NCBI GenBank assembly: GCA_023920165.1
Contig: CP089278.1
Span: forward strand, 1,860,001 to 1,924,000
DNA length: 64,000 nt
Origin: Curvularia clavata
Taxonomy: Eukaryota
Direction of reading: 5' to 3'
Shown here: positions 443 to 16,936 of the stretch, piece by piece
Position numbering within the stretch: position 1 is the first letter of the stretch
Layout of the letters: the number at the start of each line of letters is the position of its first letter
Made by a program: the position numbers and the translations under genes
Notes under the pieces: generated by a model
Database searches by the model: none
The model's input: only the letters and a program-made list of their open reading frames with translations
What the model was told of the DNA's origin: nothing

Positions 443-1163
443 TCAGAGGCTTCCCTCTTGCCTTTTCAAACGCTCAAAAAGCTGGACAAAGGCAGCTGGT
501 TCTTGAGCCCCGCCCAGTTCATACTGATCGTTGATTGTAAAATGCGGGACACCAGTAATGTGCTGCTGTCTGGCCTGAAGCACCTCCTTGTCAACTTCCG
601 CTCCACCTTTGCCCGATTCGAGCCATTCCTTTATCTCTTTCTCGTCCAGCCCAGCTTTGACACCGGCCTCCGTAAGTACTTCCTGGGTCGTAATGTCTTT
701 TTCGTTTTCAAAGTAGGCAGCGAAGAGTTCCTCAATCACACGCGTTTGCATCTGGCTTCCCTTGGTCTTCGCCAGCTGCACAAGGCGATGGGAGTCACGT
801 GTGTTCCCGGTGTTGCCGCCATATTTAAAGTTGATGCCTTCGGCTTTTCCAATTTCTGAAAGGCGCTCTTGCATCATTGCTGTGCGCTCTTTGCCAAACT
901 TAGACTCATATGCTTGCTGCTTGTTGATGCTCTTGCCTGCATCTGGGTTCAGGTAGAAGGGAAACCAAGATGTGGAAAAGGTGTCGTTTGAGTCAGGATG
1001 TTTCGCTTTGTAGGCCGCAATGCCCTGCTCAAGGCGCTTTTTGCCTACGTAGCACCATGCTGTAGGGAGTGTTCAGTCTCAAATACGCTTCCATACGCCA
1101 CAAATACACCAATGACTTACGGCACACGGTATCGCTAACGATGTTGACCTGGAAGTTGGTCAT
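443..1163 (-). CDS. DsbA/FrnE-like thioredoxin-fold protein (2 exons)
   Basis: Exons 1163-1121 and 1059-443 with a GTAAGT...TACAG intron. The spliced N-terminus MTNFQVNIVSDTVCPWCYVGK places a CPWC redox motif across the junction. The C-terminus has the GVP cis-Pro loop (ITGVPHF) and GAQ motif typical of the FrnE subfamily. Confidence 0.9.
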
Positions 1164-1581
1164 ATTGCGCAGACTTGCTCGGAAAGCCACGGTGAAGTTT
1201 TGTATGACGTATACTGGTGCTGGAGTAATGTCATTGTTTCCGGCATCTCTAACTTATAACTAGATAGATGGCGAATTGAGCGGCGATCGTTGCTGACAAA
1301 TGACGTGGTTGTGTTTATCGTAGCCTGCGGAATTTTCCCTATTCCAGCAGATTCCGAGGTTCCGAGGTTACGTACAAGAGCTGTTGACCTCACCAGAAAC
1401 GCACTACCGCACAAACGCTCTTACTGTACGCATTTCATGATGCTGTGTACTTTGGCTATCTAGTATCATGGGATCATTTAATCAAATTTTGTAACAGAGT
1501 AGACCGGATGACCGTGAACGCCTCGCTATGCAGAGAAACAACTTTTGCTCAATTCAACTGAGCGCGCAGCAATCTTACTTT

Positions 1582-3132
1582 CTATTGCTGTGCTCGGTGC
1601 AACTCCTCACGGAATTTGGCCCCACGAACCAAGATCAACAACACTCCTGGTATGCAAAGCAAATCCATGATGCCCAGACCTGTAAATGCCCATCCCCATC
1701 CCATTCCCTGGAGGACGCGGCCCATAATAGCTGCGCAGATCGCGGCGGCCACGTTGCGGAGAAAGCCTCCGAGTGCCACCAGACTCGCAGTCTGAGTGGG
1801 ATCACATTCTGTTTGAAATGAGGTACTCGTCACAAAAACGACAGAGACACCGACGGCCGCAAGAGCTGAGCCCAAGAGACTTAGAGCTGGATGTGCGTGC
1901 TTGAGCGCGAACCAACCAAACATTATCTTTCCGGCTGCTGCAATGACGAACCCCGGAATTTGGATCGCAATTCGGCGTTCGGGTGCTACTTTTCCATCGG
2001 GGCTGTTGGCAATCGCTTTCTTCCGCATAGAATCAGAGAGCCGTCCAACGACAATGGAAGCGACGAACATGGCGACACCAGGACAAAGGAAGCCGTATCC
2101 CACCTCAGCAGTAGTCCAATCATAGCCCTCTTGCCAGATGGTAGGAAATGAAATGTACATGCCATACAGACCAGCGAACTGGAAGGCTCCGTTGAAAGAA
2201 ACGATCAGGTGAGGTGGGTATTTCAGAAGATGCATGAACTTCCGGAACGAGGGTCGGGGAGCCTTTGGAACATCCGCATCGGTACATGGCTTGGTTCGGA
2301 GTTTTGGCATCGATATCCAGGGCTGTCGGGCAAGAGCAGCGCCATTCCCAACAAGAGACCTCAGGGTTTCTGGCATGCAAAAGACAATAGCAAGATACAC
2401 CGGAAGACTTGCCAACGACAGGAAACCAAAAACCCATCTCCACCGCGTCTCGGTTGCAAATTGACCACCGATGAGAGGCCCCAGGATAGGGCCAAGCTGA
2501 GGTCCCATAAGGAACCAGGCCAGGGCAGATGCACGGCTTGCAGGTTCGGTGATGTCGGCTACTGTGCCAGCTCCAACAGAGAAGACAATACATGATCCGA
2601 AAGCCTGGAAGATTCGAAGAACGTATAGCAGCGCGATATGGGGTGGAAGTGTAGCAAGTAATGTGTTAGCGATGAGAAAGCTTCCGAGCCCGACCATGTA
2701 CACCGTCTTCCTGCCGCCAATGTCAGAGGCCGCCGCACCAAAGAGAGGCTGGTAGACGTCAGCAAAGTCTTTGGGATCTCATACTGGAGCACTTACTGCG
2801 ATGGCAAACACAATCATGTACATGGAAACCGTTCCATTGACTGCAGTTTCGGAAGTCTGGAAAATCTTCCGGAATAGTCTGAGCGAAGGCAGATAGACGG
2901 CTCCACAAAGTGGCCCAAAAAAGCCAGCTGCGGTAACAACGCCTAGGATGAATCGTCTGCGATTAACCGAAAATGCAGAATAGGGCGGTGGACCGGGTGC
3001 CAGTGGTACATCATCCGCGAAAGATTGATGGGGTTCATCGATACTGTTTGATGAATGATCGTCCTCGCTGTCAATGCTGTCACGGCATCTGTCATAGGCG
3101 GTCAACTTTTCAAATTCGATCGGTGAGCGCAT
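1582..3132 (-). CDS. MFS transporter, DHA1 drug:H+ antiporter type (Dtr1/Qdr-like), ~500 aa, 2 exons
   Basis: Exons 3132-2797 and 2748-1582 join in frame (GTAAGT...CCAG). Motifs seen: PYSAFS, SDIGGRKTVY (motif A), LRIFQAFG, GPQLGPILGPLIGG (motif C), WRWVF, PETL and PERR. Confidence 0.9.
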
Positions 3133-4954
3133 GATGAGGGAGTGGTGAGTGAGGTGATGCCTTTGACAGTATGGAATGTGCTATCATGAATGGAAGCATA
3201 CAAAGACAGTAATATGTGTGGACGCAACGCTCAGCATAGCCCCATAATCGGAACGGCCTACATGTTGCTTCTGCGCTACGCCGCACTACCCAAACTCGAC
3301 GCCCTATTCTGGGCGCGTATTGTGGGCTTTCAGCGACGCCCCGCTTCCAGGTTGTTCGCTAGAGGATATGACCTTGTACAAAGCATATATTTTTGTCTCG
3401 GCTGTGTTCAACCCAGCCCCTACCACAAGGAAGCTTGGCAACCATCAAGTTCAGCCCCCAATGATTTCTTACAACAGGCTACTCCTCAAATCTCACCTTC
3501 ACTGTTACGTGCTGGTATGAACGACGGTATGAACTTGTTCCAAGTTTCTTCTTCATGCGCGAAGTCTTCGAGTGCATCATGCTGGCTTACCAAGATCTAG
3601 TCCTTCTCAAAATCCGGTATGCACTACAGAGTATGATAATGGCTGGCTGAATATGCTTAAGCCATTCGGCATTCTGACAGGGGGTCCCAGTTGTGCTTTG
3701 CCTTGGATCGGTGGCATGCATGGCTTGTATCACAAGCGTTGACAAAACCAGTGTATTCTGCTAGCGCCTGGCACGGACATCCCGAGGGGCTGGGGCAAGC
3801 CTGAAGGTTGCATTAGTGGGCTCCACCCTGTAGCGAAGGAATACCGTCCACCCACGCTGCGCCTACCAAACAACTAGGTGATGTGACATGTAGAATCGCC
3901 ACTCTAGCTATAGGCCATAGGCGCTACAGATGCCGGCCATGCAACCAAAGGAAGACTGCAGTTATGACAGCCTATCTGGCACAGAAACCAAAGATAGCGA
4001 CATGAGTTAGCTGTCACTGAACATCATGGCGCAAGCACCTGGAATTAACTGAGTTGGGTTATTTTGTCCCAAGACATCAGGAGATGGGTCTCGCTGACCT
4101 GAGCAGCCGCACCGGTTCATGAGCAAAGCTACTGAGCGTGGCAAGCAATCATTTTGCAGCAAAGTAATGCAGCAGGTAGTGCACAAACCCACATACACCA
4201 ATCCGCAGAGGCTGACGCGCCTCCTGTAGCCAGCTATGGGAGAATCACAGATCATCTCAGCGCTATGTATGTTCTTGAGGTCTAAATTCTCCACCAAGGC
4301 ATTCCTCGCTAGCTAGTGTATAGTGGCTGGCAATTTCCTCAACACTTGTCATGGGTATTTATAGTTTTGGCACGGACAACTCTTTGTTCTTTTTGGGTAC
4401 AAGATGTTGCGGTCTTGAATACTCTGTTGCTCCTTCGACTGATGCTTACTTGGGACTCGGATGAACTCATCATAAGCAAGTCACGTGGTGCATGGAGCGC
4501 CTGAAGTTTAATGTCAGCGGAAAGTGGGGACTACGTTCTGACATGTCGTTGAACCGAAATTACTCTTGGTTGCCCTAATCTCCACTTTGCTCTGGACTAG
4601 AAACCTTGCACTGAAAATGTGACGTGTGTTGAAGGACCAACAAATGGGCCCGTACGTGACATGGACAATTCGCTGTCATCGTTTTTACTACTTTGGTGAT
4701 GGAGGGGAATGTAAGTGGGGTAAGCTAGTGTCGGGCCTTCTATGTTGTCTAGCTGGAGTGATTGTCTGCTCTGCGGTCGTTCTAAGTGATCGATCCAGAA
4801 CTTGTGTATTGCAAAGCAAGAAACTAACGAAGCTCACGAGACCTTGAAACTTTAGCAGAGAGGGATTAGGAGCAAAACATGCGATTAAGGTATTACGAGA
4901 TGTGAACTGTAGAATTAAACACCGATCGCTATGCAAACAACCCGCTGAACCATC

Positions 4955-6484
4955 CTATGACTTTTCCAATCGTCCTGTGATACTCGCGAATTTTAATTTC
5001 AAAGCCCGCGGGTACAGGGGCCCTGCAGGTGTCATTCTTCCATCCCACTTCTCATCCACCTTCCACCTAACATCTCTCAGTAACTGCACCAGGGTAATCC
5101 TCAGTTGCTGCATCGCAAACTTCTGGCCGAGGCAAGCTCTCCTTCCACCATGGAAACTGATAAAAGCGCACTTAGAATTGGCACGGCGGTACAACTTGTT
5201 AATTTCCTCGTTTGTGACACCCCAACGCTCAGGCTTAAAGTCTTCGGCATCAGCGCCCCAGAACTCTGTGTCACGGTTCGTAGAATAAGCATTATATCCC
5301 ATGTACACCCCAGCGGGGACAGAGACTGCGTTTCCGAGAACGACGGGAGTTGTTGTGCAGCGGTTGATAAGCTGAGAGATGGGTGGGAACATACGTAGAG
5401 ATTCGTACAGGACCGATGTGAGGAGCGGCAGGTCGTGGATGGCGGTGTAGGAAGGCTCGTAGTCTGCAGGTGCGTTGCTGGGGTACACAGAAACAATTTC
5501 TTGGCGAACAGCTTCTTGGACATGAGTATATGTACCGAGAAGGTACATGAGCGACATGAGCGCTAGCTGGGGGTTTTCGTGCCCGGCGAGAAAGGTGCTG
5601 ACTAGGTTGTCGTCGAGATCTTTGTCGCTGAGAATGCCTTCGCGGTGAGAACCGAGGAGTCTACAAGCAACGTTTCTGCCATCGTTCTCGTTGCAGACAT
5701 GATCTGTGTGGCCCTTGACTATGGCGCTGCGGAGAGTGTTGCGGAACTGCCCGCTAAGCACACGGCCCAGCTTGCGCATCTTCAAAGGTAGATGGTCAAG
5801 GAACGGGAAGTTCAAGAAGATTGGGTGGAAGATTATGGGCTTGATCTTCGTTTGTAGCGTGTGTAGCGGGGCACTTGCGTGCTGTAGAGTGTCGAAGCTG
5901 GAGCCATATAGGACTTCTGAGAGGTTGGCAAGCGCATATCGGTGGAGCAGAGAGTAGACTGGAACTCCGTTGCCCCCAGTATTCTTGGAATCGCTCAGGA
6001 ACATGTCACTGAGAATCCTTGAGTTTTTCCAGATTTTCTCAGAGTCCTGATCAGCTTGAAGGGCGGGTTTAATGACGCGCTGGTAAAGCCTCCATTTCTC
6101 GCCATGAGCGCTGATGATGTTCTCGCCTGTGTACTCTGCAATTACGCTATGCGGAATCTTGACTTGGTTTCCAGACTTTGCGTATGTGTCTTCTTGCTTG
6201 AAAATCTCTGCTATGTAAGCAGGCTTCGTGACCAGAATATTCCACTGTCCACCAAAGAACAATTTTACTGCGCCATATTGTGCCAGAGGCTCCTTCAGGT
6301 ATCGCCGATAAAGCTCAGCTTGGTCGACATCTTTGAATAGAGGTAAAAGGCCGTAGTAGAAAGGGATGGTTGGAATATTCTTGGGAAAATGTTTTGGTGG
6401 TGTGAAAAGGTACACGAAGAAGGTAGCCACACCAAAGACAGTAGCAAAGGCTGCTATGAACACCAAAGATAGATAGGAAACCAT
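4955..6484 (-). CDS. DIT2: Cytochrome P450, Dit2/CYP56-like
   Basis: Single 509-aa ORF with an N-terminal membrane anchor, I-helix AGHENPQL (CYP56-style, no conserved Thr), ESLR, PERW and heme motif FHGGRRACLG. Divergent from a Dit1 homologue, as in yeast. Confidence 0.88.
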   Translation of the reverse strand: MVSYLSLVFIAAFATVFGVATFFVYLFTPPKHFPKNIPTIPFYYGLLPLFKDVDQAELYRRYLKEPLAQYGAVKLFFGGQWNILVTKPAYIAEIFKQEDTYAKSGNQVKIPHSVIAEYTGENIISAHGEKWRLYQRVIKPALQADQDSEKIWKNSRILSDMFLSDSKNTGGNGVPVYSLLHRYALANLSEVLYGSSFDTLQHASAPLHTLQTKIKPIIFHPIFLNFPFLDHLPLKMRKLGRVLSGQFRNTLRSAIVKGHTDHVCNENDGRNVACRLLGSHREGILSDKDLDDNLVSTFLAGHENPQLALMSLMYLLGTYTHVQEAVRQEIVSVYPSNAPADYEPSYTAIHDLPLLTSVLYESLRMFPPISQLINRCTTTPVVLGNAVSVPAGVYMGYNAYSTNRDTEFWGADAEDFKPERWGVTNEEINKLYRRANSKCAFISFHGGRRACLGQKFAMQQLRITLVQLLRDVRWKVDEKWDGRMTPAGPLYPRALKLKFASITGRLEKS

Positions 6485-7430
6485 GGTGTTGAGATGATGC
6501 TTTCAGAACCGCAAGAGTCTTCGACTACTGCTTTGATAGAACATAACTATATGAAACCTGTAAACAATGCCAACAATATTCCAGCCCTACATCGGGGCGG
6601 TGCTCCCAAGCGAAAGCGGCTGAAGGCTGAGGCGGGAAGCATGGGTGCACAGACTCTGTACCTAAGGCTCTAAGCCCCATGCACCTACAATTAGACAATA
6701 GAGGGTTTACGGAAGTAACTTTTTTAACTCGATGCACAATGCTTGGCAGACTTGTCCAATGGTTCGTGGTGTAGCCAACAAGGGTAGGGAAATCCCCGCT
6801 CAGGCATGCCGCCAAGGATATGCCAACATCTCTGTGGACCTGAGGATCTCGGTAGCTCTGCCACTACCGTTCAGCTCAAAGCCTTGCAGCGTAGCAACCA
6901 GCTGGATCCTACGGTGGGACCGGTGCCACAACCAGACGGCTCGCCCTGCCCAACCGCTTCGCTTCCACCGCCCCTGTGAGTATTGCGATGCATGCCAAGT
7001 TGTGCATCTTATGGGTATCGTAGGTGCAGAGCAGGGGGCCATCCCATGCACTGCCTCCCGATACGTCCGGCATAGCGGTGAATCCCATGAGCTGAGTTGT
7101 GGTAGCGAGATTAGAAGCTACCGTAATTAGCGTGCTCGTCAGTGTATGGAGCGCACGACCGGTGGCTTGCTAGATGCCATGCGCAGTAGCGTGGGCCGCT
7201 TGCGCTCTGGCAATGTGGAGCAACGCTTTTTGCAATAATCAGAACATGTGCATTGTATTTTGATGATATATTAGAAGCCGGCATGTTGATGGTAGGACAA
7301 TCAAATAATCAACTCCCACAACAGTTTCAGCCTCACAGGCCTTCAGCATCTTTGTCTCCTATTTCCTTTGTCTAGTCTCAGCATCACCACTTCAGCGGAT
7401 ATCCCTTACTCTTTTCTTTCATAATCCACA
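6485..7430. promoter_or_regulatory. Shared divergent promoter of the DIT2-like P450 and the DIT1-like isocyanide synthase
   Basis: 946-bp head-to-head intergenic region between ATGs at 6484 (-) and 7431 (+). TATA-like runs near 6549 and 7266. Confidence 0.7.
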
Positions 7431-9537
7431 ATGGCTCCTCTCAACAAGTCCATCAACACCTACCACTGCATCCAGGGGATGTACTGGAGAAATGCCTCCG
7501 GTGAACTCCTAGCAATCGAGGGAAGCAACTCAAAATCACTTCCAGAGATCTGGGCACAGCTGAAAGACATTGTTTGCTCCACGGAGGCATCATGGACACA
7601 GCTCCAGCTACCCTCTGGAAAATGCATCAAGTCTCTCCAGATCAATGCCGACATCCCGGCCCTTCTCAACATTCGCTCAAACTTTCCACCTACATATCAA
7701 CAAGAGGAGCTCACTTCACAAATTTCTGAAATACAGGACGAGAACGGCCTCTTCCTCGGTATTATTACATCCAGGCCAAAGATTGTCAAAGCCGATGGCT
7801 TTTCAGTATGGGCAGAGCGTTTTGTTCTCCTAGAGACAGAATTCCAGCCGTTTGCTGATATCTCGTCATCTACTACACCATGGGCTGTGAAGCACCGCGA
7901 GACCTGTGCGGTCATTGCAGAGATATTCGAAAGGAGACTCAAGAATGTCTCCAAGGATGACCAGTGGCACCTCGGCGGGAAAGAGGTTTTTCTGAACCGT
8001 GTCTACGGCTATGTCGACAAAAACCTACCCATACAGCTGGCGTTACCTGCGTTTCCCTGCAAGTCGCCTAATCCAAACAAGGTCGGTGGCATCATGCCAG
8101 ATCTCGCTGAGCACATCGCGATGGATACACTCCGCGATTTCGTGAAAGAGGTGAACAGCGTATATGAGCCTGGCGCGACTATGTGGGTCATTAACGACGG
8201 CCACGTCTTTTCGGATTGCAGTAAGTCTTTTGCTTGACACTCACGCACGACAGATATTAACAAGCACAGTTGGTGTTGATGATGAAATGATTGACACATA
8301 TGATGCCTGCATGGCAGCAATCTACAAGGAACGATACCCAGAGGATGGCCCTGTACCAGCCATCAAATTCAAGGGCCTGAAGAACATTTTCGCTGCAGAC
8401 TCAGATGGCTTTCAAGGCCTGCAGAAGCTGCTTCTCAACTCCCACCAGATGCCCCACCCTGTAAAGACCAAGCTTACCGGCGAAGCTGAGCTTTGTCGAA
8501 AACTGATGCTCGGCATCGGTGGGCCTGACCGTGCATACATCCGCCAGTTGATTGAGCAACAAGAACCGGATGCTCTTGGCCTATACCGAGGTCAGACACG
8601 CTTCATGCTTGAAGACTTGGCTGATATCCCATCGGTCAAGTCTATGAGCGGTAAGCAGAAGAAGAAGACGGCAGCTCTTGTCGCAGAAGAGATGATGTCT
8701 CGAAACCAAGCATACTCCAACCTCACAGAGCTTCTCCTTCCAAATTACGTTCGTCTCTCAATTCACGCACACAACAATGCGGGTCCTAAGTTTGCGATTC
8801 GGCTGTTGCCAGCAAACACCGTCCGTGCAATTGACTCCCTCGAGACCTGTCTCGAGCCCAACCCGGTTTACGAATACCAACTCCCAACTCCCTGGCACAA
8901 CTGTATGATCAAGGTTGAAGGCGACGAGTTTATGTACCTTGCCAAAGCCCAGGTTGCCAGAAAAGCTCTACAGAGCCCAGGTTTTGTGGGATCGTGGGTA
9001 GATGGGCCTGATGGATCATACTTTAGTCTGAAGCGCAAGTCTCCTGCAACATCTGGCACCACTGCTCCTCCCAAATTGGTCATCCCCAGCACTATTACAA
9101 TGGAGAAGGTCACCGTCTTCAACCAGAACAAGAAGAGCACCATTGTACTTGTCACGCCGATCAACGAGAAGAAGAAGCCAATCATCATTTGCTCGCCTGT
9201 CGTTGGCAAGAACAGCCCCATCGTTGTCACTTCCTCGACCGACGACGGACACCGACCCATTGTCGTTTGCTCACCCGTCACTCGCAGACAAGCCATGTTC
9301 TCCCCCATTGCCGACAGGGTGCGCTCACCCATCGGCTCTCCTATCGTACGCACGAAGACATCGGTCATTGCATGTGACCCCGCTGCGGAGAAGGGTGCTG
9401 CGGTTGTTGTCTCACCGATCGAGACCGGTACGCTCAAGCGCCAGGACACACACTTTGTTCAGCGCGGAGAGAAAAACAGGTTGCGCAAGCTTATGCCAGT
9501 CATTTCCATGCTTCGCTCTATCCGCTCGCAATCGTAG
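7431..9537 (+). CDS. DIT1: Dit1/PvcA-family isocyanide synthase, ~685 aa, 2 exons
   Basis: Exons 7431-8220 and 8270-9537 (GTAAGT...CACAG) restore NDGHVFSDCIGVDD. Family motifs LPAFPCKSPN, PDLAE, RNQAYS, VRLSIHAH and PTPWHN are present. No fused TauD or NRPS domain is visible. Confidence 0.93.
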
Positions 9538-10264
9538 TTAATGTGTTTTTGCCTGAGTGTTTTGTTATTCTCGGATGTTTCTTTTCTACAAATGTATTAG
9601 CCTAGTACATTCGCTATCCCATACCTTCTTCGCATCTATATATCCTACTGAAAAAAGCTGCATTCGGCGTTTGGCGCGATGACGGGCTTCGCGATTCTAC
9701 AAGAGCTAACCAGAATGCTGCTCTCGCTTTAGTATATCAATATCTATGTTTTCCTCGATGGAAAAAATTCTTTTCTTTTCCTTAATGAATTGTTCCTATA
9801 TTTTCCAAGAAACTGAAGAGGATTGACAAACGATGTCCCTAGGAGTCGTCTTGCTAAGCTTTGCCCAGCTTACTATATTGTATGCACGTCCCTCGCATAT
9901 TATATTAAATGTATTCGTTTATGCAGAAACTTGCGCAATTCAGCTCAGCGCTGGTGTCTTATACGTGCAAAATATATGGAAATGTTTTGTGTGCCCAAGA
10001 CTTGATTGCCGTACCGGTCACGATTGAGGGTGAGCTGGACGCCTTACCTCGATTTTCTTCAGCGCTTGTTGCAACTGGCAAGATGCAGGATTTTGCCAAG
10101 AGTCGTTTGTTATTTCGAAGTTGGGCTGATGAACGCCCTGAATCCGAAAAGTGTTTAAGAGGTGGAGGCGGAATTGGGAAATGTAAACATCGTCACTTGC
10201 TAGAAAGTGGAAGGAGCAGCTCGAACGCCTCTGTTCTAGACTTGCACTCCTAATCGCTGTCACT

Positions 10265-11068
10265 ATGGGTTCAATTCAGATCACTAAGATGCTCGCCTAT
10301 CTTCTCGCACTTCAAGTCATCGGATCAGTGGCAGGCATGTGGTACTATTCGCGATTTAACGATAAAGCATACTGACTCGAAGTAGCGTCGCTCGCCACGG
10401 TACCGCGCACCTATGGCATCGTTCTCTTCCGCATGTTCGACATGCTTGACGTATACGGCCCATCCGAAGTTCTTCAGTTTATCGGCGGATCGTACAAGAC
10501 AGATATTGTCTACATCGCCGAAACTCTAGATCCCGTTACGACGCGCCCAGCTGCGGCAAACATGAACCCCTTGAACTCGTCGGTATACCCTTCGCTCACA
10601 CCAACGCACACGTTCGACACAGCGCCCGAGCTCGATGTACTCATCATTCCCGGCGGGCCAGGCTGGCGCAATCCTACAACTTTAAACACCACCATGGAGT
10701 ATATCCGTAAGACAACGCCAAAAGTCCAGCAGGTTCTTACTATTTGCACAGGGTCTGCCCTGGCCGCCCGCTCCGGCATATTGAACGGCAAAAAAGCTAC
10801 TTCGAACAAATCCTCGTGGCTCACCACTGTGCAAAACAATCCAAACACGACATGGATTTCTCACGCACGATGGGTTGAAGACTACTCGAGTTTTCCGCCT
10901 ATCTGGAGTTCGTCGGGCGTCACAGCTGGTATTGATATGATGTTGCATTGGGTAGAGAAAACTTACAATGCTGAGAATGCAACTACTATCGCCAGGTTTA
11001 TTGAGCATGTGAGGATTACGGATCCGAGTATTGACCCGTTTGCGAGGAATGATACGATGGCTGAGTAG
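10265..11068 (+). CDS. DJ-1/PfpI (ThiJ) family protein, isocyanide hydratase-like, predicted secreted
   Basis: Exon 1 10265-10334 encodes a hydrophobic leader. A GC-AG intron at 10335-10385 precedes exon 2 10386-11068. Motifs: LDVYGP, DVLIIPGG, ICTG (nucleophilic Cys), ARWVED and SSGVTAGIDM. Confidence 0.85.
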
Positions 11069-11972
11069 AAATGATTTTAGTCAGCTAGGTCCAGCAACAC
11101 GCCTACTAGCGAGAGAGTCAACTATCTGCGAGGTCTAAAACCTCTGATTGTACCTAAAGTGACTGGCCCCTGCGTGCAATCTACCTAGACGTCCTTCCCT
11201 TTCAGATGCTTTTCGCCTCTCGCTCTAATCTGCACATCCATACAGTTAGGTTCTGGATTAGAAAGTCCTCCTTTGGCATATCTGAAATATGCAATTCGCC
11301 TGTCACACGTGTGGGGGCGTGTCCCAGGACATGCAAAATATGTGGGCCGCTCCTCCCAGCCGCCTCCCTTGTGGACCTATAAGACCCATCAGATGTGCAC
11401 CATAAGAAAACCAGTAAACTTTCTCGAGAGAGCGTTAAGAACGGTCGCTTAGAGGTTTGAAATATGCCTACTCGGAAACTTTCTCATTCGCAGGGGAGGT
11501 TAGACCGCATTGAGCATGGCGCACCTGCAAGACGAACATACCTGCAGGACACAAGACGGAGGAAGTGGGAACATGCCGTCACAATCAGTAGACAGTCAGG
11601 TCGTGCTGTTGTACGAAACGGAATGACAGGCTCCAAAGAGGCTGTCAAGGTGGCCAGGCACCTTTGTAAGTCTGGGATTGCCTTGTAATTTCGTTGGCAT
11701 GCGGAATTTCTTTCCCCACTGAAAAAAGCTGGGTATATAAATAGTATGGTTCGTTTTTCGCTTCCACCGCTCTTTCTAGGAACTAAGATTTCACCTCTCT
11801 AACTCACTAGGCTACAAAGCCACCCCTTGAAATGAGGTTGCAAAAAAAGGTATAAGATTCACAAGGTCGAGTGTTACCCAAACCAACAGCCTCGCCTATT
11901 ACTCTACATATCCCGCGCTTTCCTTAGTGCTCGCCAGTACTCCTCCCCTTCGCGCCTGTACGATTCAGACGC

Positions 11973-12016
11973 AAACTTGCTCAGGGACAGATAAGGGGCT
12001 AGAGAAACTTGCTCAA
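11973..12016 (+). promoter_or_regulatory. Tandem candidate copper-response (Mac1-like) elements AAACTTGCTCA upstream of Ctr
   Basis: An identical 11-mer occurs at 11973-11983 and 12005-12015, about 145-185 bp upstream of the Ctr ATG. Its core TTGCTCA resembles the yeast CuRE TTTGC(T/G)C(A/G). Confidence 0.6.
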
Positions 12017-12157
12017 GTACAAGTTCGACACGGACCCCCGCGCGTTTGGTATATCTCCCACTACAAATTGCGCATCGTCTCGTTCACCACCCCACCCCGC
12101 TACTTCTTCTCAGCAATCAACACACCTACTGCTTCATTTCACAGAGAGAGAGAGCAA

Positions 12158-12870
12158 ATGATGAGAGTCGATATGTTAAAGGGGGTGCCCCAAGACTCCA
12201 TGGCATCTGGCGATACGCACAACATGGGCATGGGCAACGGATGCAAGATCAGCGTAAGTAGCCTCTCTTTCTTTCTTTCTTTCTCTCTCTCGGATTCAGT
12301 CATGCACGCAGCAAACTGACCTTGAGCGTGCAATAGATGCTGTGGAACTGGAACGTGGTCGATGCCTGTTTCATCTCCGAGTCGTGGCATATCAAGTCCA
12401 AGGGCATGTTTGCCGGATCGTGTATCGGCGTCATCCTGCTTGTCGTTTTGCTAGAATTCTTGCGCCGCGCGGCCAAGGAGTACGATCATTTTATCGTCAC
12501 ACAGTATAGCAAGACGCTCCACCCGACTACGATTAATGTTTCCTCTTCGGCCTCTTCTTCGGATGCCATTGCGGCTGGCACAAGCAAGGACCCGGTGGCT
12601 GAAGGAGCAGCTCTGCCGGCCAGGGTAGGCGCCGCGAACAAGTTCAGGCCGACTGTGGTTCAACAAGCGCTTCGCGCACTGTTACACACATGCGCATTTG
12701 CAGTGGCATACTTCGTCATGCTGCTGGCCATGTACTACAACGGCTACTTTATCATTTGCATCTTCATCGGAGCATACCTTGGATACTTCATCTTCGGTTG
12801 GGAGAGCTTCAATGTTAGCAAAGGCGGCGAGGATCGCATGCAGGAGAATGCTACCGTATGTTGCGGATAG
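12158..12870 (+). CDS. Ctr-family copper transporter (Ctr3-like), 2 exons
   Basis: Exons 12158-12253 and 12337-12870. Met-rich N-terminus, CKISMLWNW across the junction, LEFLRR, MxxxM (MLLAM) plus YNGY, GxxxG in TM3, and C-terminal CCG. Confidence 0.93.
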
Positions 12871-13252
12871 CACACACGTGTAGTGACATGGGAGAGCTTG
12901 AACGCTGAATGGCAATGCATGACGATATCGGGAACGAGTATGGCTTAGTAGAGGAATCAAACATTATGGTACACAGCACTGGTACACGAGAATTATAATG
13001 AAGTCATTTGCATTTGTATTACCAGCCCCTGTCAACTTGATACTCTTGTAGCCATACTGCATTAGCCACTATATGTGTATTCCCCACATCTCCTTCTCAA
13101 GATGCACATTGTATCGTCGTAGTCTTCGTCATCCCCTCGTCAACTCATCTACGGAAAGTGTTAGCAGGCCATGTCTCCAATGAGAGTATCGTTGAATATC
13201 ACTCACCGAATCGTGTCTTGTGGCTATGCACTGGACCGTAGAATCATGAAGT

Positions 13253-13387
13253 TTATTTGCCCTGAAGCAGTGTTAGCTAATCAACGAGCTGAGGACAAAG
13301 GTGCGGAGAACGTACGGGGCAGCCGTCGCAGTTGCAGGTGGAGCCGCAGTTGCAGGCACCAGAAGCACAGCCGCAGTTACCCTTCAT
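13253..13387 (-). CDS. Copper metallothionein, 26 aa: MKGNCGCASGACNCGSTCNCDGCPGK
   Basis: Exon 1 13387-13316, then a 54-nt intron 13315-13262 (GTACGT...GCTAAC...TTCAG), then exon 2 13261-13253 (GGC AAA TAA). Seven Cys in CxC...CxC...CxCxxC spacing, like Neurospora-type copper metallothionein. CACCATG start context, with TATATAA at 13526-13520. Confidence 0.92.
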
Positions 13388-14177
13388 GGTGATGGTAGTG
13401 TGTTAGGTTGGGTTGTTGAGTTGGTTTTGGAGTGGCTTGAAAAGCGTGATGGTGTTGAGACTTTGTTCGAATTGCTTGTGTGATGGAGGAGAGGCGGAGG
13501 AGATTTTGAAAGCAGAGTCTTATATACCCAAGGTATGCGCGACTTGTGCGGACTTGCCTCTCCGACCGAGGGTCTCTGATCACTGGAACTCTAACGGCCC
13601 GCTTACAGACCCTGGATTTGCTGACGCGGGCATTCCCACTGGCTAGCCATTCCCGTAGACGGATGACTGCATAGAGTAGTCCTCATTGGTGTTCCTGAGG
13701 AGTGATTGGCCTGCGCGCTTTATGCGGTTCCACGGCCCTTGTTGGTGTGGGGTTGAGGCACTTGTGCGGTCTTCTAGCCCCCTCACGTGCCTGGCGCCAC
13801 CCATCTCAACTTAGAGAAAAGTGGAGGTGCACTCTTTGTGCGGCATCAAAGCCAAGAGGCCACCCACTCCGTCTCCGTCTTGGTGTCTGCCTGGCTCCTC
13901 GCAGAAACCGTAAGAATCTTCTCTAGGTCGTTTCCCGCCTGCAGCCAAGACTGTTGGAGGGCAAGGTCTCCACCCTGTGCGCTCGAGAAACGCTCCCAAG
14001 ACCCTGACCTGGGTATATGCCACGGATGATTGTTTCCTACTGGATAATGACAAAGGCCATTATGTGATGAAGCTGCGTGGTGTGTTTGCAACTTTATGAG
14101 ATGCCATATTGGGCCTAGCGTGCACGTGACCCTAAGTAAAAAGTCAAGAAAAACACCACGGCAAGGCAAAAACAAAA

Positions 14178-14296
14178 ACATACGACAGCGGGGATTCGCC
14201 AGTGGTCACCCACCTGACTACTAGTCCGCCGGTCTCGAGCTTAAGTATGATTGATCGAACGGGGAATCCTGCTCCCTCGAGCCTATGGTCGTATGT
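14178..14296 (-). rRNA. Dispersed 5S rRNA gene (divergent variant)
   Basis: 119 nt, ACATACGACCATAGG...TACTTAAG...TAGTAGTCAGGTGGGTGACCACTGGCGAATCCCCGCTGTCGTATGT. The ends are complementary and are followed by oligo-T Pol III terminator runs. Confidence 0.95.
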
Positions 14297-14438
14297 ACTG
14301 GACGGGACACGTTTAATTCTTAATGTTCTCGGTAGCAGCTTTGAGAGACTGAGGAGACTATGGAATCGCTAGTTTGCTGATGGTCACATCTGAGCTTGAG
14401 CGGAGAGTAGTCGACCATACGTGTTGTAGTATTCTGGG

Positions 14439-16936
14439 TCATCCGATGAATTTTCCGCCGCAATAGATACAAGCGTCACAGGCTAGGAAGAGCACACGTC
14501 CCAGCGTCACAGGCAGCTGCCTGGCATCATTCGCTTGCGCCTGTCTTGCATTGCTACCCTGGTCCCGCTCTTGTCCTCTGCTATTCTCTGCGCCCTCCGT
14601 GTCTATCATCACATCCTTCTCTACATCTTTCTTTTCTTCCTTCTCTTCCAAAGTTTCCTGAGCTATCACATATCCATCGCTCAAGAATGGTGTGTTGCAG
14701 ATACCACAGTACTTCGTGATGTTAGGCGCTTGGATAGCGAGGAAGCTCAATCCACATCTTGCGAAACGATGCCCGTTTTCACACGAGGCGGAATTCAAGT
14801 CGGTCAACGGTATAGAGGCAGAGCAAAAGCCGCATCGATCTTCCCATGCAGCCGCAGCTTGCGTTGCATTGTCAACGTCGTCATTCGTAGTATCGCCGAC
14901 CTTGGAAGAGCCTTCGACGCCGGAGTCCCCACCATTCCTTCGATCTGGGCTTCCGGAAGACACATGCCCCATTACGCTGTTGATAAGCTTGATAAGCCGT
15001 TCGTGTTGAGCGACTATCTCTGAACTGAAAGCTGTTTTTACAAGTGATGACGGAAGACGATGCAATGCGTCCGCAAGCCGATACGCTATTAGCGTTCGTT
15101 CAAGATCGCATGATGCCCTAGTCTTGCAAGCTTGAGAGACGAGTATGGTGTAGCGGTCTTTAAGAGTATGCGAGTTGAGAAAGGCGGACATCTTGAATGC
15201 CTTGATCAGTGAGTTGATATCACCCGCATCACTGTACAGAGAAAAATTCTGCTCATGACCTTCGGCCATAGGAGGGTCTGAATAAGACTGAATGAGCTTC
15301 TGGACAATGTTCTCAGCGAACACGGGCATATCATCAGGATCTTCGACCATGTCCTCTGCTAGCTTCCGGATCGTATAACCAACTCCTTCTGCGCTCACAT
15401 TCTTTTTTGGGAACGCTTCCCGTTGTCCGCTGCCATGTCGTAAAGAGCTGATGGCGACTGTCCCGCTTCGGTCTGCAGGTATACCATATTCGATCATGTT
15501 TGACGGATGGACACTATTGCATGCCGCGATGAAGTCGCCTAATGGAGATATTGTTAGGCCCCAGACCTTGGCTTTGCTGTTGCCTTTCAACCCGTTCTTG
15601 ACACTAAAAAGGGCAAGATTGTTCTCAATCTTCTCTCGCCAACTTGGATTGCCGAGGCTTTTCAGTCCTTTTGGATCGACCTCGAGAACAGCTGTCTCGT
15701 TGTGCAGAGTCGATAGCAGTGAGCTTATATGTAAACGAGACACCGGTTCATCGGCGGTACCAGCAGTATCCCACGTCGCGCCAGAAACTTGATCCCACCG
15801 CCCGTCAAGACCATGAGTCGTAGTTTCAATAATCGAGGCGTCGTGAGCAGTTACGGTAAGGCAGACGAGCCCTGCGCTGGTGAAGAGGGCAAGTCTGAGT
15901 CTGTTTCCTTTTTCAACCTTGGGCGACCACTTCATTGGGCCGGCGAATCGCACTTGGAATCCGGGGTATACTACTTCCTTTTCCGCGTAAATACGGTCAT
16001 GTCTAAACGTAACGACTCTTGCCCGCACATCTTGATTTGTAGCATATACAACCACTGAACGATAACTATCGTCGCATGCAATCCACGGGCTCCAGGAAAT
16101 ATGGGATATATACCGTTGTTGCTTTATCAAATCTTCAAACACGTTTGGTTCCGAGCATGTGCCAGCTGGTTTTGGTGACAGAGACTCATGGGCTAAGACC
16201 TCTGCTCTCCAGACTCGCTCAGTTCCCAAGGTTGAAGTAGGAGATTCGACTGCCACAAAGACAAGGTGATTGTCTTCGTTCGAGACAGCCAGGAAATATC
16301 GAGAATACAACAAGCGAGTCCCAACGACACCGATCGCTTCCGAACAAGGCGGAGCGGGTGCCCATGCAAAAGCACGAATGCGACTTCGCAAGCGCAGCTG
16401 TTCTTTGGGCGGCTTTGTCAAGAGACTAGGTTCCTCATTGTAGACCTTGAAATGCTGAAAGAGCGCATCATTGATGATGAGGCGCCGGGACCAGCTCGAT
16501 TCATTTTGTAGCTTGCCTTCGGCTGACCAGATAGCAAGGGTGAGGTTTGAAGTGAGAACAGCAAGGGCGCACCTTCGATGCTTCGCAAGACCAGCGGGTG
16601 ACCACGCAATGCTGAGGGGAGCGCTATTGGAGATTTCTTCGCCAATCGAATAATTGGGTAACGGAGCGAGCTCTTTGAGTGGCAGCTCGTCTAGTGAGAA
16701 AAGAGGTACCTTGAGGGGGACATGCTGCCATTGTGGAAGGACTTGGTCTCTTTCAAAATCAACAGTGTTTGGAAACTACATTGCGATCAGCAGGACCATC
16801 ATGAAGTGCCTTACTAGACGAAACATACAAGTAGCTCTACACGCTCGTCAGACGCTAGTGCAATAATGCCGTCTGGTGACCAGTCGATCGCATCCACGCA
16901 CGCTGGCCAGCACCTCAGCACTGTCACGTCCGACAT
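14439..16936 (-). CDS. Transcription factor IIIC subunit (90 kDa/delta-type: N-terminal beta-propeller plus C-terminal zinc finger), 2 exons
   Basis: Exons 16936-16829 and 16775-14439 join in frame. N-terminal WS.DG.IA and IAWSPAG motifs. C-terminal CxxC...CENGHRFARC...CxxC...CIYCGGKF zinc finger. Confidence 0.8.

Follow-up and report, generated by a model that had tools for sequence, protein, structure and literature searches.

Does the copper importer that stands beside the isocyanide-synthase (dit) genes of the leaf-spot mould Curvularia clavata (Pleosporales) belong to their pathway, or is it a neighbour by descent? The dit1/dit2 pair is the most widespread fungal isocyanide-synthase (ICS) cluster and has been treated as a metal-independent spore-wall pathway. 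In the window, namely the 64,000-nucleotide stretch of C. clavata DNA that we analysed, the genes for an MFS transporter, a cytochrome P450, a Dit1-type synthase, a DJ-1/PfpI protein, a Ctr-family importer, and a metallothionein follow one another on strands -, -, +, +, +, and - (Table 1). The preliminary description of this DNA had listed the same six genes, and Pfam matches, open reading frames, and RNA contigs confirm that all of them lie where it placed them and are transcribed, with every intron backed by spliced RNA contigs from 2–4 runs.

Table 1. Features of the dit locus and its borders (positions within the window).
Feature	Position	Strand	Structure	Evidence or remark
DSBA-like gene	443-1072			Bounds the block on the MFS side
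MFS transporter, Dtr1 position	1582..3132	-	2 exons, intron 2749-2796	Pfam MFS_1, E 2.7e-34; intron in spliced RNA contigs of X10 and X12
Low-level spliced transcript	3946..4684	+	Introns 4053-4106, 4174-4227	RNA contigs X10 and X12
Dit2-type cytochrome P450	4955..6484	-	Single exon	Pfam p450, E 5.6e-59
Dit1-type isocyanide synthase	7431..9537	+	Exons 7431-8220, 8270-9537; intron 8221-8269	Pfam DIT1_PvcA (PF05141) on both exons, E 8.8e-30 and 1.1e-47; intron confirmed by spliced RNA contigs
DJ-1/PfpI protein, secreted-type	10265..11068	+	Exon 1 10265-10334, exon 2 10386-11068	Pfam DJ-1_PfpI (PF01965), E 2.9e-12
Two exact AAACTTGCTCA copies, Mac1/CuRE-like	11973-11983, 12005-12015	+		143-185 nt upstream of the Ctr ATG
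Ctr-family Cu(I) importer	12158..12870	+	Exons 12158-12253, 12337-12870; intron 12254-12336	Pfam Ctr (PF04145), E 4.4e-45; intron confirmed by RNA
Copper metallothionein gene (predicted)	13002..13471	-	CDS 13387-13316 and 13261-13253; intron 13262-13315; 3'UTR intron 13149-13206	
Three TTGTGCGG copies upstream of the metallothionein gene	13544..13843 (13544, 13762, 13836)	+	Repeat	
5S rRNA gene	14177-14296			Bounds the block on the metallothionein side, with a TFIIIC gene

The first three genes make up the dit trio. Of 21 related loci, 10 have a homologue of the MFS gene adjoining the P450 gene, and 13 have a P450 homologue adjoining Dit1. In the window, the P450 gene, spanned by an unspliced RNA contig (4872-6523), is adjacent to Dit1 and divergently transcribed from it; its product is of the Dit2 type, with putative membership of the CYP56 family. 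Dit1 itself shares 89% identity with a protein of Bipolaris oryzae. The low-level transcript that lies between MFS and P450 has a spliced sequence devoid of a long reading frame, and it may stand outside the five-gene unit described below.

The DJ-1/PfpI protein, whose intron (10335-10385) is of the GC..AG type and was found in 3 runs, is isocyanide-hydratase-like, with a predicted hydratase activity. It matches the solved isocyanide hydratase (ICH; PDB 6ni5/3non) at E 2.4e-11 over residues 65–207, although its best PDB match, better than that to ICH, is the uncharacterised ThiJ-family protein 3mgk (E 3.6e-30, full length). Its C-T-G nucleophile elbow aligns with a V-C-T-G-S stretch of the solved ICH, and C141, T142, and G143 are invariant in an alignment of 24 DJ-1 homologues, in which the window's own protein is not a row. 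The match and the retained elbow bear out the earlier designation of a hydratase-like enzyme. The preliminary description had further placed hydration outside the cell, and as to location the protein agrees with it: the N-terminus is hydrophobic, the first exon is signal-peptide-like in the window as well as in L001, L002, L007, L015, and L020, and N-x-S/T sequons are conserved in the same 24 sequences, so that an action outside the cell fits. L010, the sole locus with DJ-1 but without Ctr, has a DJ-1 gene lacking such an exon.

The adjacent importer covers the whole Pfam Ctr profile (positions 1–151 of 151) and is 100% identical to a Curvularia clavata protein, the public annotation using a later ATG; a further intron, in the 5'UTR (11748-11809), was seen in one run. 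Marks of the Ctr family are MxxxM in the second membrane helix, GxxxG in the third, and a Met motif before the first, and the translation shows M-L-L-A-M, G-A-Y-L-G, and M-G-M. Besides the two AAACTTGCTCA copies upstream of this gene, which may be set beside the DHNTGCTCANNN sequence bound by Fusarium oxysporum Mac1 (PMC11563359), 10 of 11 loci have the TGCTCA core in front of Ctr, with 24 copies observed against 7.0 expected, and the core is 2.5 times as dense there as in the remaining intergenic DNA of these loci. Treated as a prior hypothesis, this excess has a Poisson probability of 1.2e-4, whereas in a blind hexamer search upstream of Ctr the core ranks 9th of 1,994, which is not significant after correction. 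We regard these enriched elements as candidate Mac1-type low-copper sites.

The dit genes present another picture. The window's P450/Dit1 promoter contains neither TGCTCA nor a Mac1-type site, and across the loci the dit promoters are only mildly richer in the core (15 vs. 9.2 and 11 vs. 6.5 expected). Contig depths, a poor measure of expression, in two RNA runs that carry one organism label (X10/X12) were 18/178 for MFS, 156/625–1193 for P450, and 38/218 for Dit1, as against 172/4–10 for Ctr and 6.6/5 for DJ-1; since these depths diverge, Ctr does not seem to follow the dit genes, as far as a weak measure in two runs can tell. Together, the dit promoters and the RNA runs count against a single copper regulon for the whole cluster.

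We then compared the linkage of these genes among relatives. The accession numbers of Ctr, DJ-1, and Dit1 are consecutive in three of three species (Coniothyrium glycines, Pyrenochaeta sp., and Lophiostoma macrostomum), as are the locus tags of Dit1 and Ctr in Plenodomus lindquistii and those of Ctr and DJ-1 in Alternaria panax and Neocucurbitaria sp. Further, Dit1 and Ctr matches fall on a contig of equal size, which we take to be shared, in all 18 comparable species (those whose Dit1 match reaches 58% identity or more and for which a comparable Ctr row exists), and the same is true of DJ-1 and Ctr matches in 20 of 22 species. In L001, a metagenome contig resembling Alternaria, the genes run Dit1-DJ-1-Ctr. 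Among the 15 informative loci, which extend 3 kb or more past Dit1, 10 have Ctr within ~2 kb downstream, and nine of these 10 belong to a second Dit1 clade, 37–49% identical to the window Dit1, in which the order is Dit1-Ctr(-DJ-1) and the P450 gene is inverted. Downstream of Dit1, L005/L006 (one taxon), L016 (a trio of the yeast-like kind), and L019 have neither Ctr nor DJ-1, and L010 has DJ-1 alone. The window's outer neighbours (DSBA-like and TFIIIC), which served as a control, were matched in none of the 21 loci. Because the loci are not phylogenetically independent, such counts overstate the number of events. That relatives share the linkage of Dit1, DJ-1, and Ctr but not the genes flanking it shows that the arrangement exceeds chance, and its conservation is the new result of this analysis. 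The separation of Ctr from dit1/dit2 in relatives, which the preliminary description had named as evidence against itself, is not what we found, as the genes stay together across the Pleosporales and also in a Dit1 clade far removed from the window's. In filamentous ascomycetes, MFS-Dit2-Dit1-hydratase-Ctr forms a five-gene unit that has been conserved.

The sixth gene stands apart. Its ATG, at 13387 on the minus strand, opens a spliced product of 26 residues with 7 Cys in C-x-C spacing; it is transcribed, with both introns spliced in four of four runs, and its mRNA converges tail-to-tail on the 3' end of Ctr. The peptide has no Pfam match, and its sole match among 177,635 PDB sequences is the 25-residue 1t2y, the copper metallothionein of Neurospora crassa. 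All seven Cys align at the same positions, with one single-residue gap, at an E-value of 8.6, which is not significant at so short a length; copper binding of the Curvularia peptide is predicted. A metallothionein-like ORF was found in none of the 21 related loci, and the only close relative to extend as far as Ctr stops 199 nt past it, short of the metallothionein position. The earlier gene identities, ICH-like DJ-1 protein, and Ctr linkage stand; membership of the metallothionein in the cluster is not supported. It is probably a mere neighbour rather than a conserved member, and is probably under separate, high-copper control. The TTGTGCGG copies upstream of it, a possible regulatory repeat, belong to a sequence that occurs 8 times in the window against 2.6 expected, a number reached in 0 of 100 shuffles.

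The reading that we prefer, at a probability of roughly 0.4, is that the five-gene unit runs a copper-capture cycle, with a separately switched Ctr and with the metallothionein as a likely neighbour. Dit1 would convert tyrosine into isocyano (or N-formyl) tyrosine, the P450 would join two units into a dityrosine-type compound, and the MFS would export it; outside the membrane, the isocyanide groups would hold Cu(I) until the secreted hydratase converted them to formamide, ending copper binding at the cell surface, where the adjacent Ctr would take up the Cu(I). The copper arm would have its own switch, in the form of Mac1-type low-copper elements at Ctr and not clearly at the dit genes, so that induction of synthesis need not coincide with that of uptake. 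Judged from the genes, such a chalkophore cycle is plausible but unproven; the recurring linkage in distant fungi hints that spore-wall-type dit genes may also handle copper.

Three known systems resemble parts of this cycle. Hazimycin is a dityrosine-type diisocyanide. The hazimycins, cited as actinobacterial chalkophores and prepared synthetically via dityrosine routes, bind copper (PMC13647977) and are the nearest chemical analogue of a Dit1-Dit2 product that retains its isocyanide groups, though they are bacterial and the Curvularia product is putative. The xanthocillin (xan) cluster of Aspergillus fumigatus likewise combines a tyrosine-derived isocyanide with a Dit2-homologous P450 (XanG) and a ThiJ/PfpI ICH homologue (XanA), and is copper-responsive (PMC5974471), a feature that for the Curvularia ICS gene is a proposal only. 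Its backbone, XanB, is an ICS-dioxygenase fusion, whereas the Curvularia ICS is of the single-domain Dit1 type, and the available text on xan names no Ctr among its genes (PMC5974471), unlike the Curvularia locus with its linked Ctr. Finally, the Aspergillus fumigatus crm cluster (crmA-D) physically includes a Ctr-type transporter, crmD, which is co-regulated by copper, and is induced by copper starvation through MacA (PMC5974471, PMC9381783). It differs in its backbone, a valine-using ICS-NRPS-like enzyme, and crmD is little conserved in distant species (PMC9381783), whereas two deeply separated Dit1 clades keep the dit-Ctr linkage. The papers searched describe no dit cluster with Ctr in their text, the flanking-gene domain figure (Fig. 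5a) and supplements of the dit-superfamily paper aside.

A serious, if tentative, alternative is a spore or conidial wall module, in which MFS, Dit2, and Dit1 would produce N,N-bisformyl-dityrosine and send it out for use in a protective layer of the wall, and secreted DJ-1 would complete the isocyanide-to-formamide conversion in the wall. Ctr and metallothionein would then be ordinary copper-homeostasis neighbours with an indirect link, e.g. through copper for wall pigment oxidases in sporulation. The Curvularia locus shares the Dit1-type ICS domain and the divergent P450 with yeast DIT1/DIT2/DTR1 and the dit superfamily (Nickles et al. 2023; Clan 3, Dothideomycetes/Onygenales, the Coccidioides DIT cluster included), yeast DIT1/DIT2 being divergently transcribed (PMC5974471), and its MFS has the same place and orientation as in Clan 3 and Onygenales (PMC10153163); it differs in the long C-terminal tail of Dit1 (~180 residues), which matches no Pfam family. 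The yeast product is a spore-wall component, with an isocyanide not shown in yeast in the available text (PMC7345447), and dityrosine is said to have 'no known metal association' (PMC10153163). The nearest homologue with experimental data is the DTR1-DIT2-DIT1 cluster of Coccidioides, which is expressed in spores and whose deletion leaves the arthroconidial wall thinner (PMC12077801); the window Dit1 shares 52% identity with the 'dityrosine synthesis enzyme' of Coccidioides posadasii. The rise of all three dit genes, and not of Ctr, between the two RNA runs weakly favours a wall role as well, as does the window's dit promoter without a copper element. Such a role leaves unexplained, however, that Ctr has been kept beside Dit1 through rearrangements in two ~40%-identical clades while the outer flanks were lost. 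Further, the intron-less L016, which is of the yeast-like type with the established wall role, has neither Ctr nor DJ-1, and the three extra genes of the Coccidioides cluster are unnamed or 'Cutinase', none of them being described as Ctr in the available text (PMC12077801). In Curvularia and across Pleosporales, by contrast, a secreted-type ICH-like protein and Ctr come after the trio, and the available text of the dit papers draws no metal link.

It is distinctly unlikely that the product is first of all a copper-withholding antibiotic, a secreted xanthocillin-like isocyanide that would starve competitors while the hydratase self-protects and Ctr supplies the producer, although this reading overlaps the copper-capture cycle and merely places antagonism first. 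Xanthocillin is described as a chalkophore that inhibits other microbes by withholding copper, and 21.1% of fungal ICS clusters contain isocyanide hydratases, with self-protection as their hypothesised role (PMC10153163); exporter, hydratase, and Ctr are conserved as a group. Yet the product is putative, the dit genes are expressed in plain cultures of unstated condition, and one would look for a self-protective hydratase within the cell, whereas the DJ-1 N-terminus is of the secretion type. Neutral synteny, in which Ctr, DJ-1, and metallothionein sit beside the dit genes by descent and have no common function, is less likely still: while Ctr looks to be the one orthologue that each Pleosporales species ordinarily has (56–91% identity among named and unnamed matches), seems to be separately regulated, and has lost its link to a retained Dit1 in some lineages (L005/L006), and while the metallothionein is confined to the window among the loci compared, the linkage outlasts a P450 inversion and a Ctr/DJ-1 order swap between clades, and is found in 10/15 informative loci against 0/21 for the immediate outer neighbours. 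For the metallothionein taken alone, neutral synteny is the likeliest reading.

Extended to its full breadth, the copper-capture reading becomes rather doubtful, though less so than antagonism or neutral descent: filamentous-ascomycete dit clusters would be self-contained 'lock-and-key' devices for copper capture, and the yeast dityrosine trio would be what is left of a more ancient copper system. An MFS-exported, hazimycin-like tyrosine diisocyanide would seize Cu(I) from the surroundings, and only the producer could unlock it, because its own secreted hydratase would destroy the ligand on the cell surface, beside a dedicated Ctr; the yeast spore-wall pathway would be the trio without hydratase or Ctr, derived by reduction.

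In summary, a copper importer and a secreted-type hydratase are kept next to the dit genes in two deeply diverged lineages, which gives a testable copper hypothesis for mould dit clusters, and Curvularia, Bipolaris, and Alternaria are easily handled, plant-associated fungi in which to pursue it. Were the hypothesis false, the conserved dit-Ctr linkage would still want explaining. If it is true, the dit clusters would be a third copper-linked isocyanide system beside xan and crm, and by far the most widespread, and the extracellular destruction of a ligand would gain a role in metal release.

Six-frame ORF and Pfam searches placed the genes for an MFS protein in the Dtr1 position, a Dit2-type P450, the isocyanide synthase (ICS) Dit1, a DJ-1 protein, and the copper importer Ctr exactly where the preliminary description had put them, and the metallothionein that it named as a sixth gene also proved to be real, lying on the minus strand with a spliced product of 26 residues and seven Cys. 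Transcript structures were taken from contigs of four public RNA-type runs over window positions 1300-14500; two of these, the metatranscriptome runs X16 and X17, gave partial cover at low depth, and their uncovered parts were not counted as evidence. The Ctr translation contains M-L-L-A-M and G-A-Y-L-G, as well as M-G-M directly ahead of the first helix. The first exons of metallothionein and Ctr matched no Pfam family, and neither did the N-terminal region or the tail of Dit1. The ESM Atlas yielded no usable Dit1 match and, for the P450, nothing more specific than generic P450 clusters. The Dit1 C-terminal tail comprises ∼180 residues with abundant S-P-I-V-like repeats and several Cys; it is found in the ∼680-residue Dit1 proteins of Pleosporales and is absent from shorter, distant Dit1 proteins. 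Outside both flanking genes, we found housekeeping genes only, namely a DEAD helicase, a kinase, a cullin, and, ∼19 kb away, a Zn2Cys6 factor.

Features of the cluster and its flanks, with positions in the window
Feature	Position	Strand	Evidence or remark
DSBA-like flanking gene	443-1072		Pfam/ORF
MFS gene		minus	Pfam MFS_1, E 2.7e-34
MFS intron	2749-2796		spliced RNA contigs
Transcript between MFS and P450 genes	3946-4684	plus	low level, no long ORF
Introns of this transcript	4053-4106, 4174-4227		confirmed, GT..AG
P450 gene		minus	Pfam p450, E 5.6e-59; unspliced
RNA contig gap	6592-7032		inside shared dit1/dit2 promoter
Dit1 gene		plus	Pfam DIT1_PvcA on two pieces, E 8.8e-30 and 1.1e-47
Dit1 intron	8221-8269		spliced RNA contigs
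Dit1 C-terminal tail	9001-9534		no Pfam family
DJ-1 gene		plus	Pfam DJ-1_PfpI, E 2.9e-12
DJ-1 intron	10335-10385		51 nt; GC..AG once ambiguous cut is shifted by two; three runs
Ctr gene		plus	Pfam Ctr, E 4.4e-45, whole profile
Ctr 5'UTR intron	11748-11809		one run
(AG)n tract in Ctr 5'UTR	12142		+10 nt in two runs, +4 nt in one
Ctr intron	12254-12336		spliced RNA contigs
Ctr and metallothionein mRNA ends	near 13002-13148		RNA contigs
Metallothionein intron in 3'UTR	13149-13206		all four runs
Metallothionein intron	13262-13315		all four runs
Metallothionein first exon	from 13387	minus	ORF, 24 codons
Three TTGTGCGG copies	13544-13843		upstream of metallothionein
Loose read ends	14168-14296		pile-up
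Dispersed 5S rRNA gene	14177-14296	minus	Rfam RF00001, 74.5 bits, E 1.3e-15
TFIIIC subunit flanking gene	14439-16775		Pfam/ORF

The low-level transcript that lies between MFS and P450 is possibly a non-coding RNA belonging to the cluster. At the other end, the Ctr and metallothionein mRNAs converge so that they abut or overlap, and one assembler produced a single contig that merges the two; an antisense interplay between importer and buffer is conceivable. The 5S rRNA gene, situated between the metallothionein promoter and the TFIIIC subunit gene, accounts for the loose read ends piled up there.

To follow the linkage beyond the window, we used its exon translations as queries against 21 related loci (L001-L021), obtained in one scan of metagenome contigs for the Dit1 domain. 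Dit1 was found in 21/21 loci by construction, the P450 in 13, the MFS and Ctr in 10 each, and DJ-1 in 7, with all Ctr matches resting on exon 2, whereas the DSBA-like flank, the TFIIIC flank, and the metallothionein were each found in none. Among the 15 loci that extend 3 kb or more past the downstream end of Dit1, 10 contain Ctr within ∼2 kb (L001, L007, L008, L009, L011, L013, L015, L018, L020, and L021). The other five of these 15 loci lack Ctr: (i) L005 and L006, a single taxon whose Dit1 copies are identical, with MRC1, Plus-3, and oxysterol-binding genes in its place; (ii) L010, the one locus in which DJ-1 is present but Ctr is not; (iii) L016, which we consider yeast-like because a compact, intron-less MFS-P450-Dit1 trio is flanked by UGP1, MCM10, and COG3; and (iv) L019, a distant ICS with neither P450 nor MFS.

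Identity matrices divide the Dit1 proteins into a clade of the window and L001-L006 (66-100% alike) and a second clade of L007-L015, L018, L020, and L021 (mostly 50-93% alike, with one pair at 47%), with only 37-49% identity between the two. L001, an Alternaria-like locus whose Ctr is 99% identical to an Alternaria alternata protein, has the gene order of the window. The order in the second clade is MFS(-) P450(+) Dit1(+) Ctr(+) [DJ-1(+)], so that, relative to the window, the P450 has the opposite orientation and Ctr and DJ-1 have changed places; the linkage has therefore outlived rearrangement. In an all-against-all ORF comparison, the only families common to distant loci were MFS, P450, Dit1, DJ-1, and Ctr. 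These five genes form a core that has stayed together in two deep lineages although the genes around it differ. In one branch of the second Dit1 clade (L011, 14844-15536; L018, 16519-18158; L013, minus strand), Ctr is followed at 3-4 kb by a Zn2Cys6-like ORF, a weak Pfam match (E 1.4e-3) that may be a cluster regulator.

Named genomes gave a similar picture. A Curvularia clavata protein matches the Ctr exon at 100% identity, and the best Dit1 and DJ-1 matches come from Bipolaris, Exserohilum, Alternaria, and other Pleosporales, so that the earlier placement in Dothideomycetes was right. Consecutive locus tags join Dit1 and Ctr in Plenodomus lindquistii (NX059_004919, NX059_004920), Ctr and DJ-1 in Alternaria panax (G6011_08355, G6011_08356), and DJ-1 and Ctr in Neocucurbitaria sp. 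(Nn.00g110360, Nn.00g110370), while Ctr, DJ-1, and Dit1 accessions are consecutive in all three species examined for this, namely Coniothyrium glycines, Pyrenochaeta sp., and Lophiostoma macrostomum. Further, Dit1 and Ctr reside on equal-sized contigs (61 kb to 5.8 Mb) in 18/18 species whose Dit1 match reaches 58% identity or more and which also have a comparable Ctr row, a row that four further species lack. For more distant Dit1 matches (43-48% identity), the Dit1 and Ctr contigs differ in three species, one of them a pooled cluster. For DJ-1 and Ctr, the contigs are equal-sized in 20/22 species, four of the 20 pairs being matched on equal contig size alone and both misses being pooled clusters. 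Of the linkage that the preliminary description proposed to check in relatives, the Ctr-Dit1 part holds in both clades and in these 18 species, and the metallothionein was found in none of the 21 loci.

The DJ-1 protein has as its best solved relative an uncharacterized ThiJ-family protein (3mgk, E 3.6e-30), followed by isocyanide hydratase (ICH; 6ni5, 3non, and others, E 2.4e-11), and its nucleophile-elbow Cys-Thr-Gly aligns with both. In an alignment of 24 homologs, in which the window's own protein is not a row, C-T-G and one Asp within the F-D-x-L-D stretch are invariant, and several N-x-S/T sequons are conserved. In the spliced translation, the DJ-1 domain is preceded by an N-terminus of 23 residues, most of them hydrophobic, and a comparable signal-peptide-like start is seen in the Pleosporales members, two Aspergillus members, and one Xylariaceae member of the same alignment. 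A signal-type first exon is also present in L001, L002, L007, L015, and L020, but missing in L010. By its sequence, the hydratase-like protein is of secretion type, and we predict that it is secreted. Between Dit1 and the DJ-1 gene, L010 carries three TGCTCA copies at 15-nt spacing (11409-11439).

The metallothionein had only one match among 177,635 PDB sequences, the 25-residue metallothionein 1t2y, which we take to be the Neurospora copper metallothionein; all seven Cys align, with an E-value of 8.6 that is not significant for so short a peptide. Neither tblastn nor two Cys-pattern scans found anything convincing in the 21 loci, a null that says little about Pleosporales because L001, the only close relative reaching Ctr, ends 199 nt past it. 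As the gene was found in none of the other loci and its expected response is to high rather than low copper, it is most likely a neighbor without shared function. The three TTGTGCGG copies upstream of it, among 8 in the whole window against 2.6 expected, may be a metal-responsive element.

Ctr bears promoter elements of the low-copper type. Two exact AAACTTGCTCA copies lie 143-185 nt upstream of its ATG. ChIP-seq of Fusarium oxysporum identified their core, TGCTCA, as the Mac1 site; the 16 Mac1-dependent low-copper genes of that fungus include a DJ-1_PfpI gene (PMC11563359). Pooled over all loci, TGCTCA occurs 24 times in 15.2 kb upstream of Ctr (7.0 expected from shuffles), 15 times in the P450/Dit1 intergenic region (9.2 expected), and 11 times in the MFS/P450 intergenic region (6.5 expected). 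At least one copy precedes Ctr in 10/11 loci, the sense strand carries 18 of the 24, and the density is 2.5-fold that of other intergenic DNA in the same loci (Poisson 1.2e-4 for a prior hypothesis). In a blind hexamer ranking upstream of Ctr, TGCTCA came 9th of 1,994, a rank that does not reach significance once corrected. TGCTCA is absent from the P450/Dit1 region of the window itself, neither TTGCTCA (14 vs 14.4 expected) nor TGCKCR (189 vs 199 expected) is enriched across the whole window, and MAFFT alignment of intergenic regions of close loci showed no conserved block of at least 7 nt except one between the window and L001. Between runs X10 and X12, which bear the same organism label, contig depth of MFS, P450, and Dit1 moves together, 5- to 10-fold, whereas Ctr moves the opposite way (172 vs 4-10) and DJ-1 is nearly flat; contig depth in two runs being a poor measure, this hints only weakly at a separate switch for Ctr.

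An isocyanide cluster containing a copper transporter is a kind already known: the Aspergillus fumigatus crm cluster includes one that is co-regulated by copper, though it is poorly conserved elsewhere (PMC5974471, PMC9381783), and the xan cluster of the same fungus has Dit2 and ICH homologs (PMC5974471). Hazimycins are cited as actinobacterial chalkophores (PMC13647977). Leaving aside Nickles et al. Fig. 5a, full-text searches found no paper tying a dit-type cluster to Ctr or metallothionein, and for isocyanide synthases in Pleosporales genera they led to nothing but taxonomy papers. Nickles et al. divide dit clusters into three clans, of which Clan 3, found in Dothideomycetes, contains an MFS, report flanking genes that are conserved and in many cases have promoter motifs in common, and state that dityrosine has no known metal association (preprint PMC10153163). 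'Ctr', 'metallothionein', and 'DJ-1' are absent from the available part of that preprint's text (PMC10153163), and the dit-Ctr linkage may already be drawn in its Fig. 5a, which gives domains per conserved gene. The Pseudogymnoascus papers concern a different, opine-type copper cluster, and the Starship paper describes DIT1/DIT2/DTR1/ATG22 cargo without Ctr.

We put at about 0.4 the probability that the cluster handles copper through isocyanide, hydratase, and Ctr uptake. An exported tyrosine-derived isocyanide would encounter copper outside the cell, the hydratase-like DJ-1 protein would stop the isocyanide from binding it, and Ctr would import the released copper. This retains part of the complete chalkophore cycle proposed initially, in that the core is conserved and the hydratase-like protein appears built for secretion, but the metallothionein step probably falls away. 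That the genes instead form a wall module is only a little less probable: in the main counter-example, Coccidioides, DTR1-DIT2-DIT1 is spore-expressed and required for normal arthroconidial wall thickness (PMC12077801). A variant of the copper-handling reading in which competition comes first is unlikely. Neutral synteny, with Ctr beside Dit1 by descent and without shared function, is the least probable account. With the copper-handling reading, the most widespread fungal ICS cluster gains a testable copper hypothesis.
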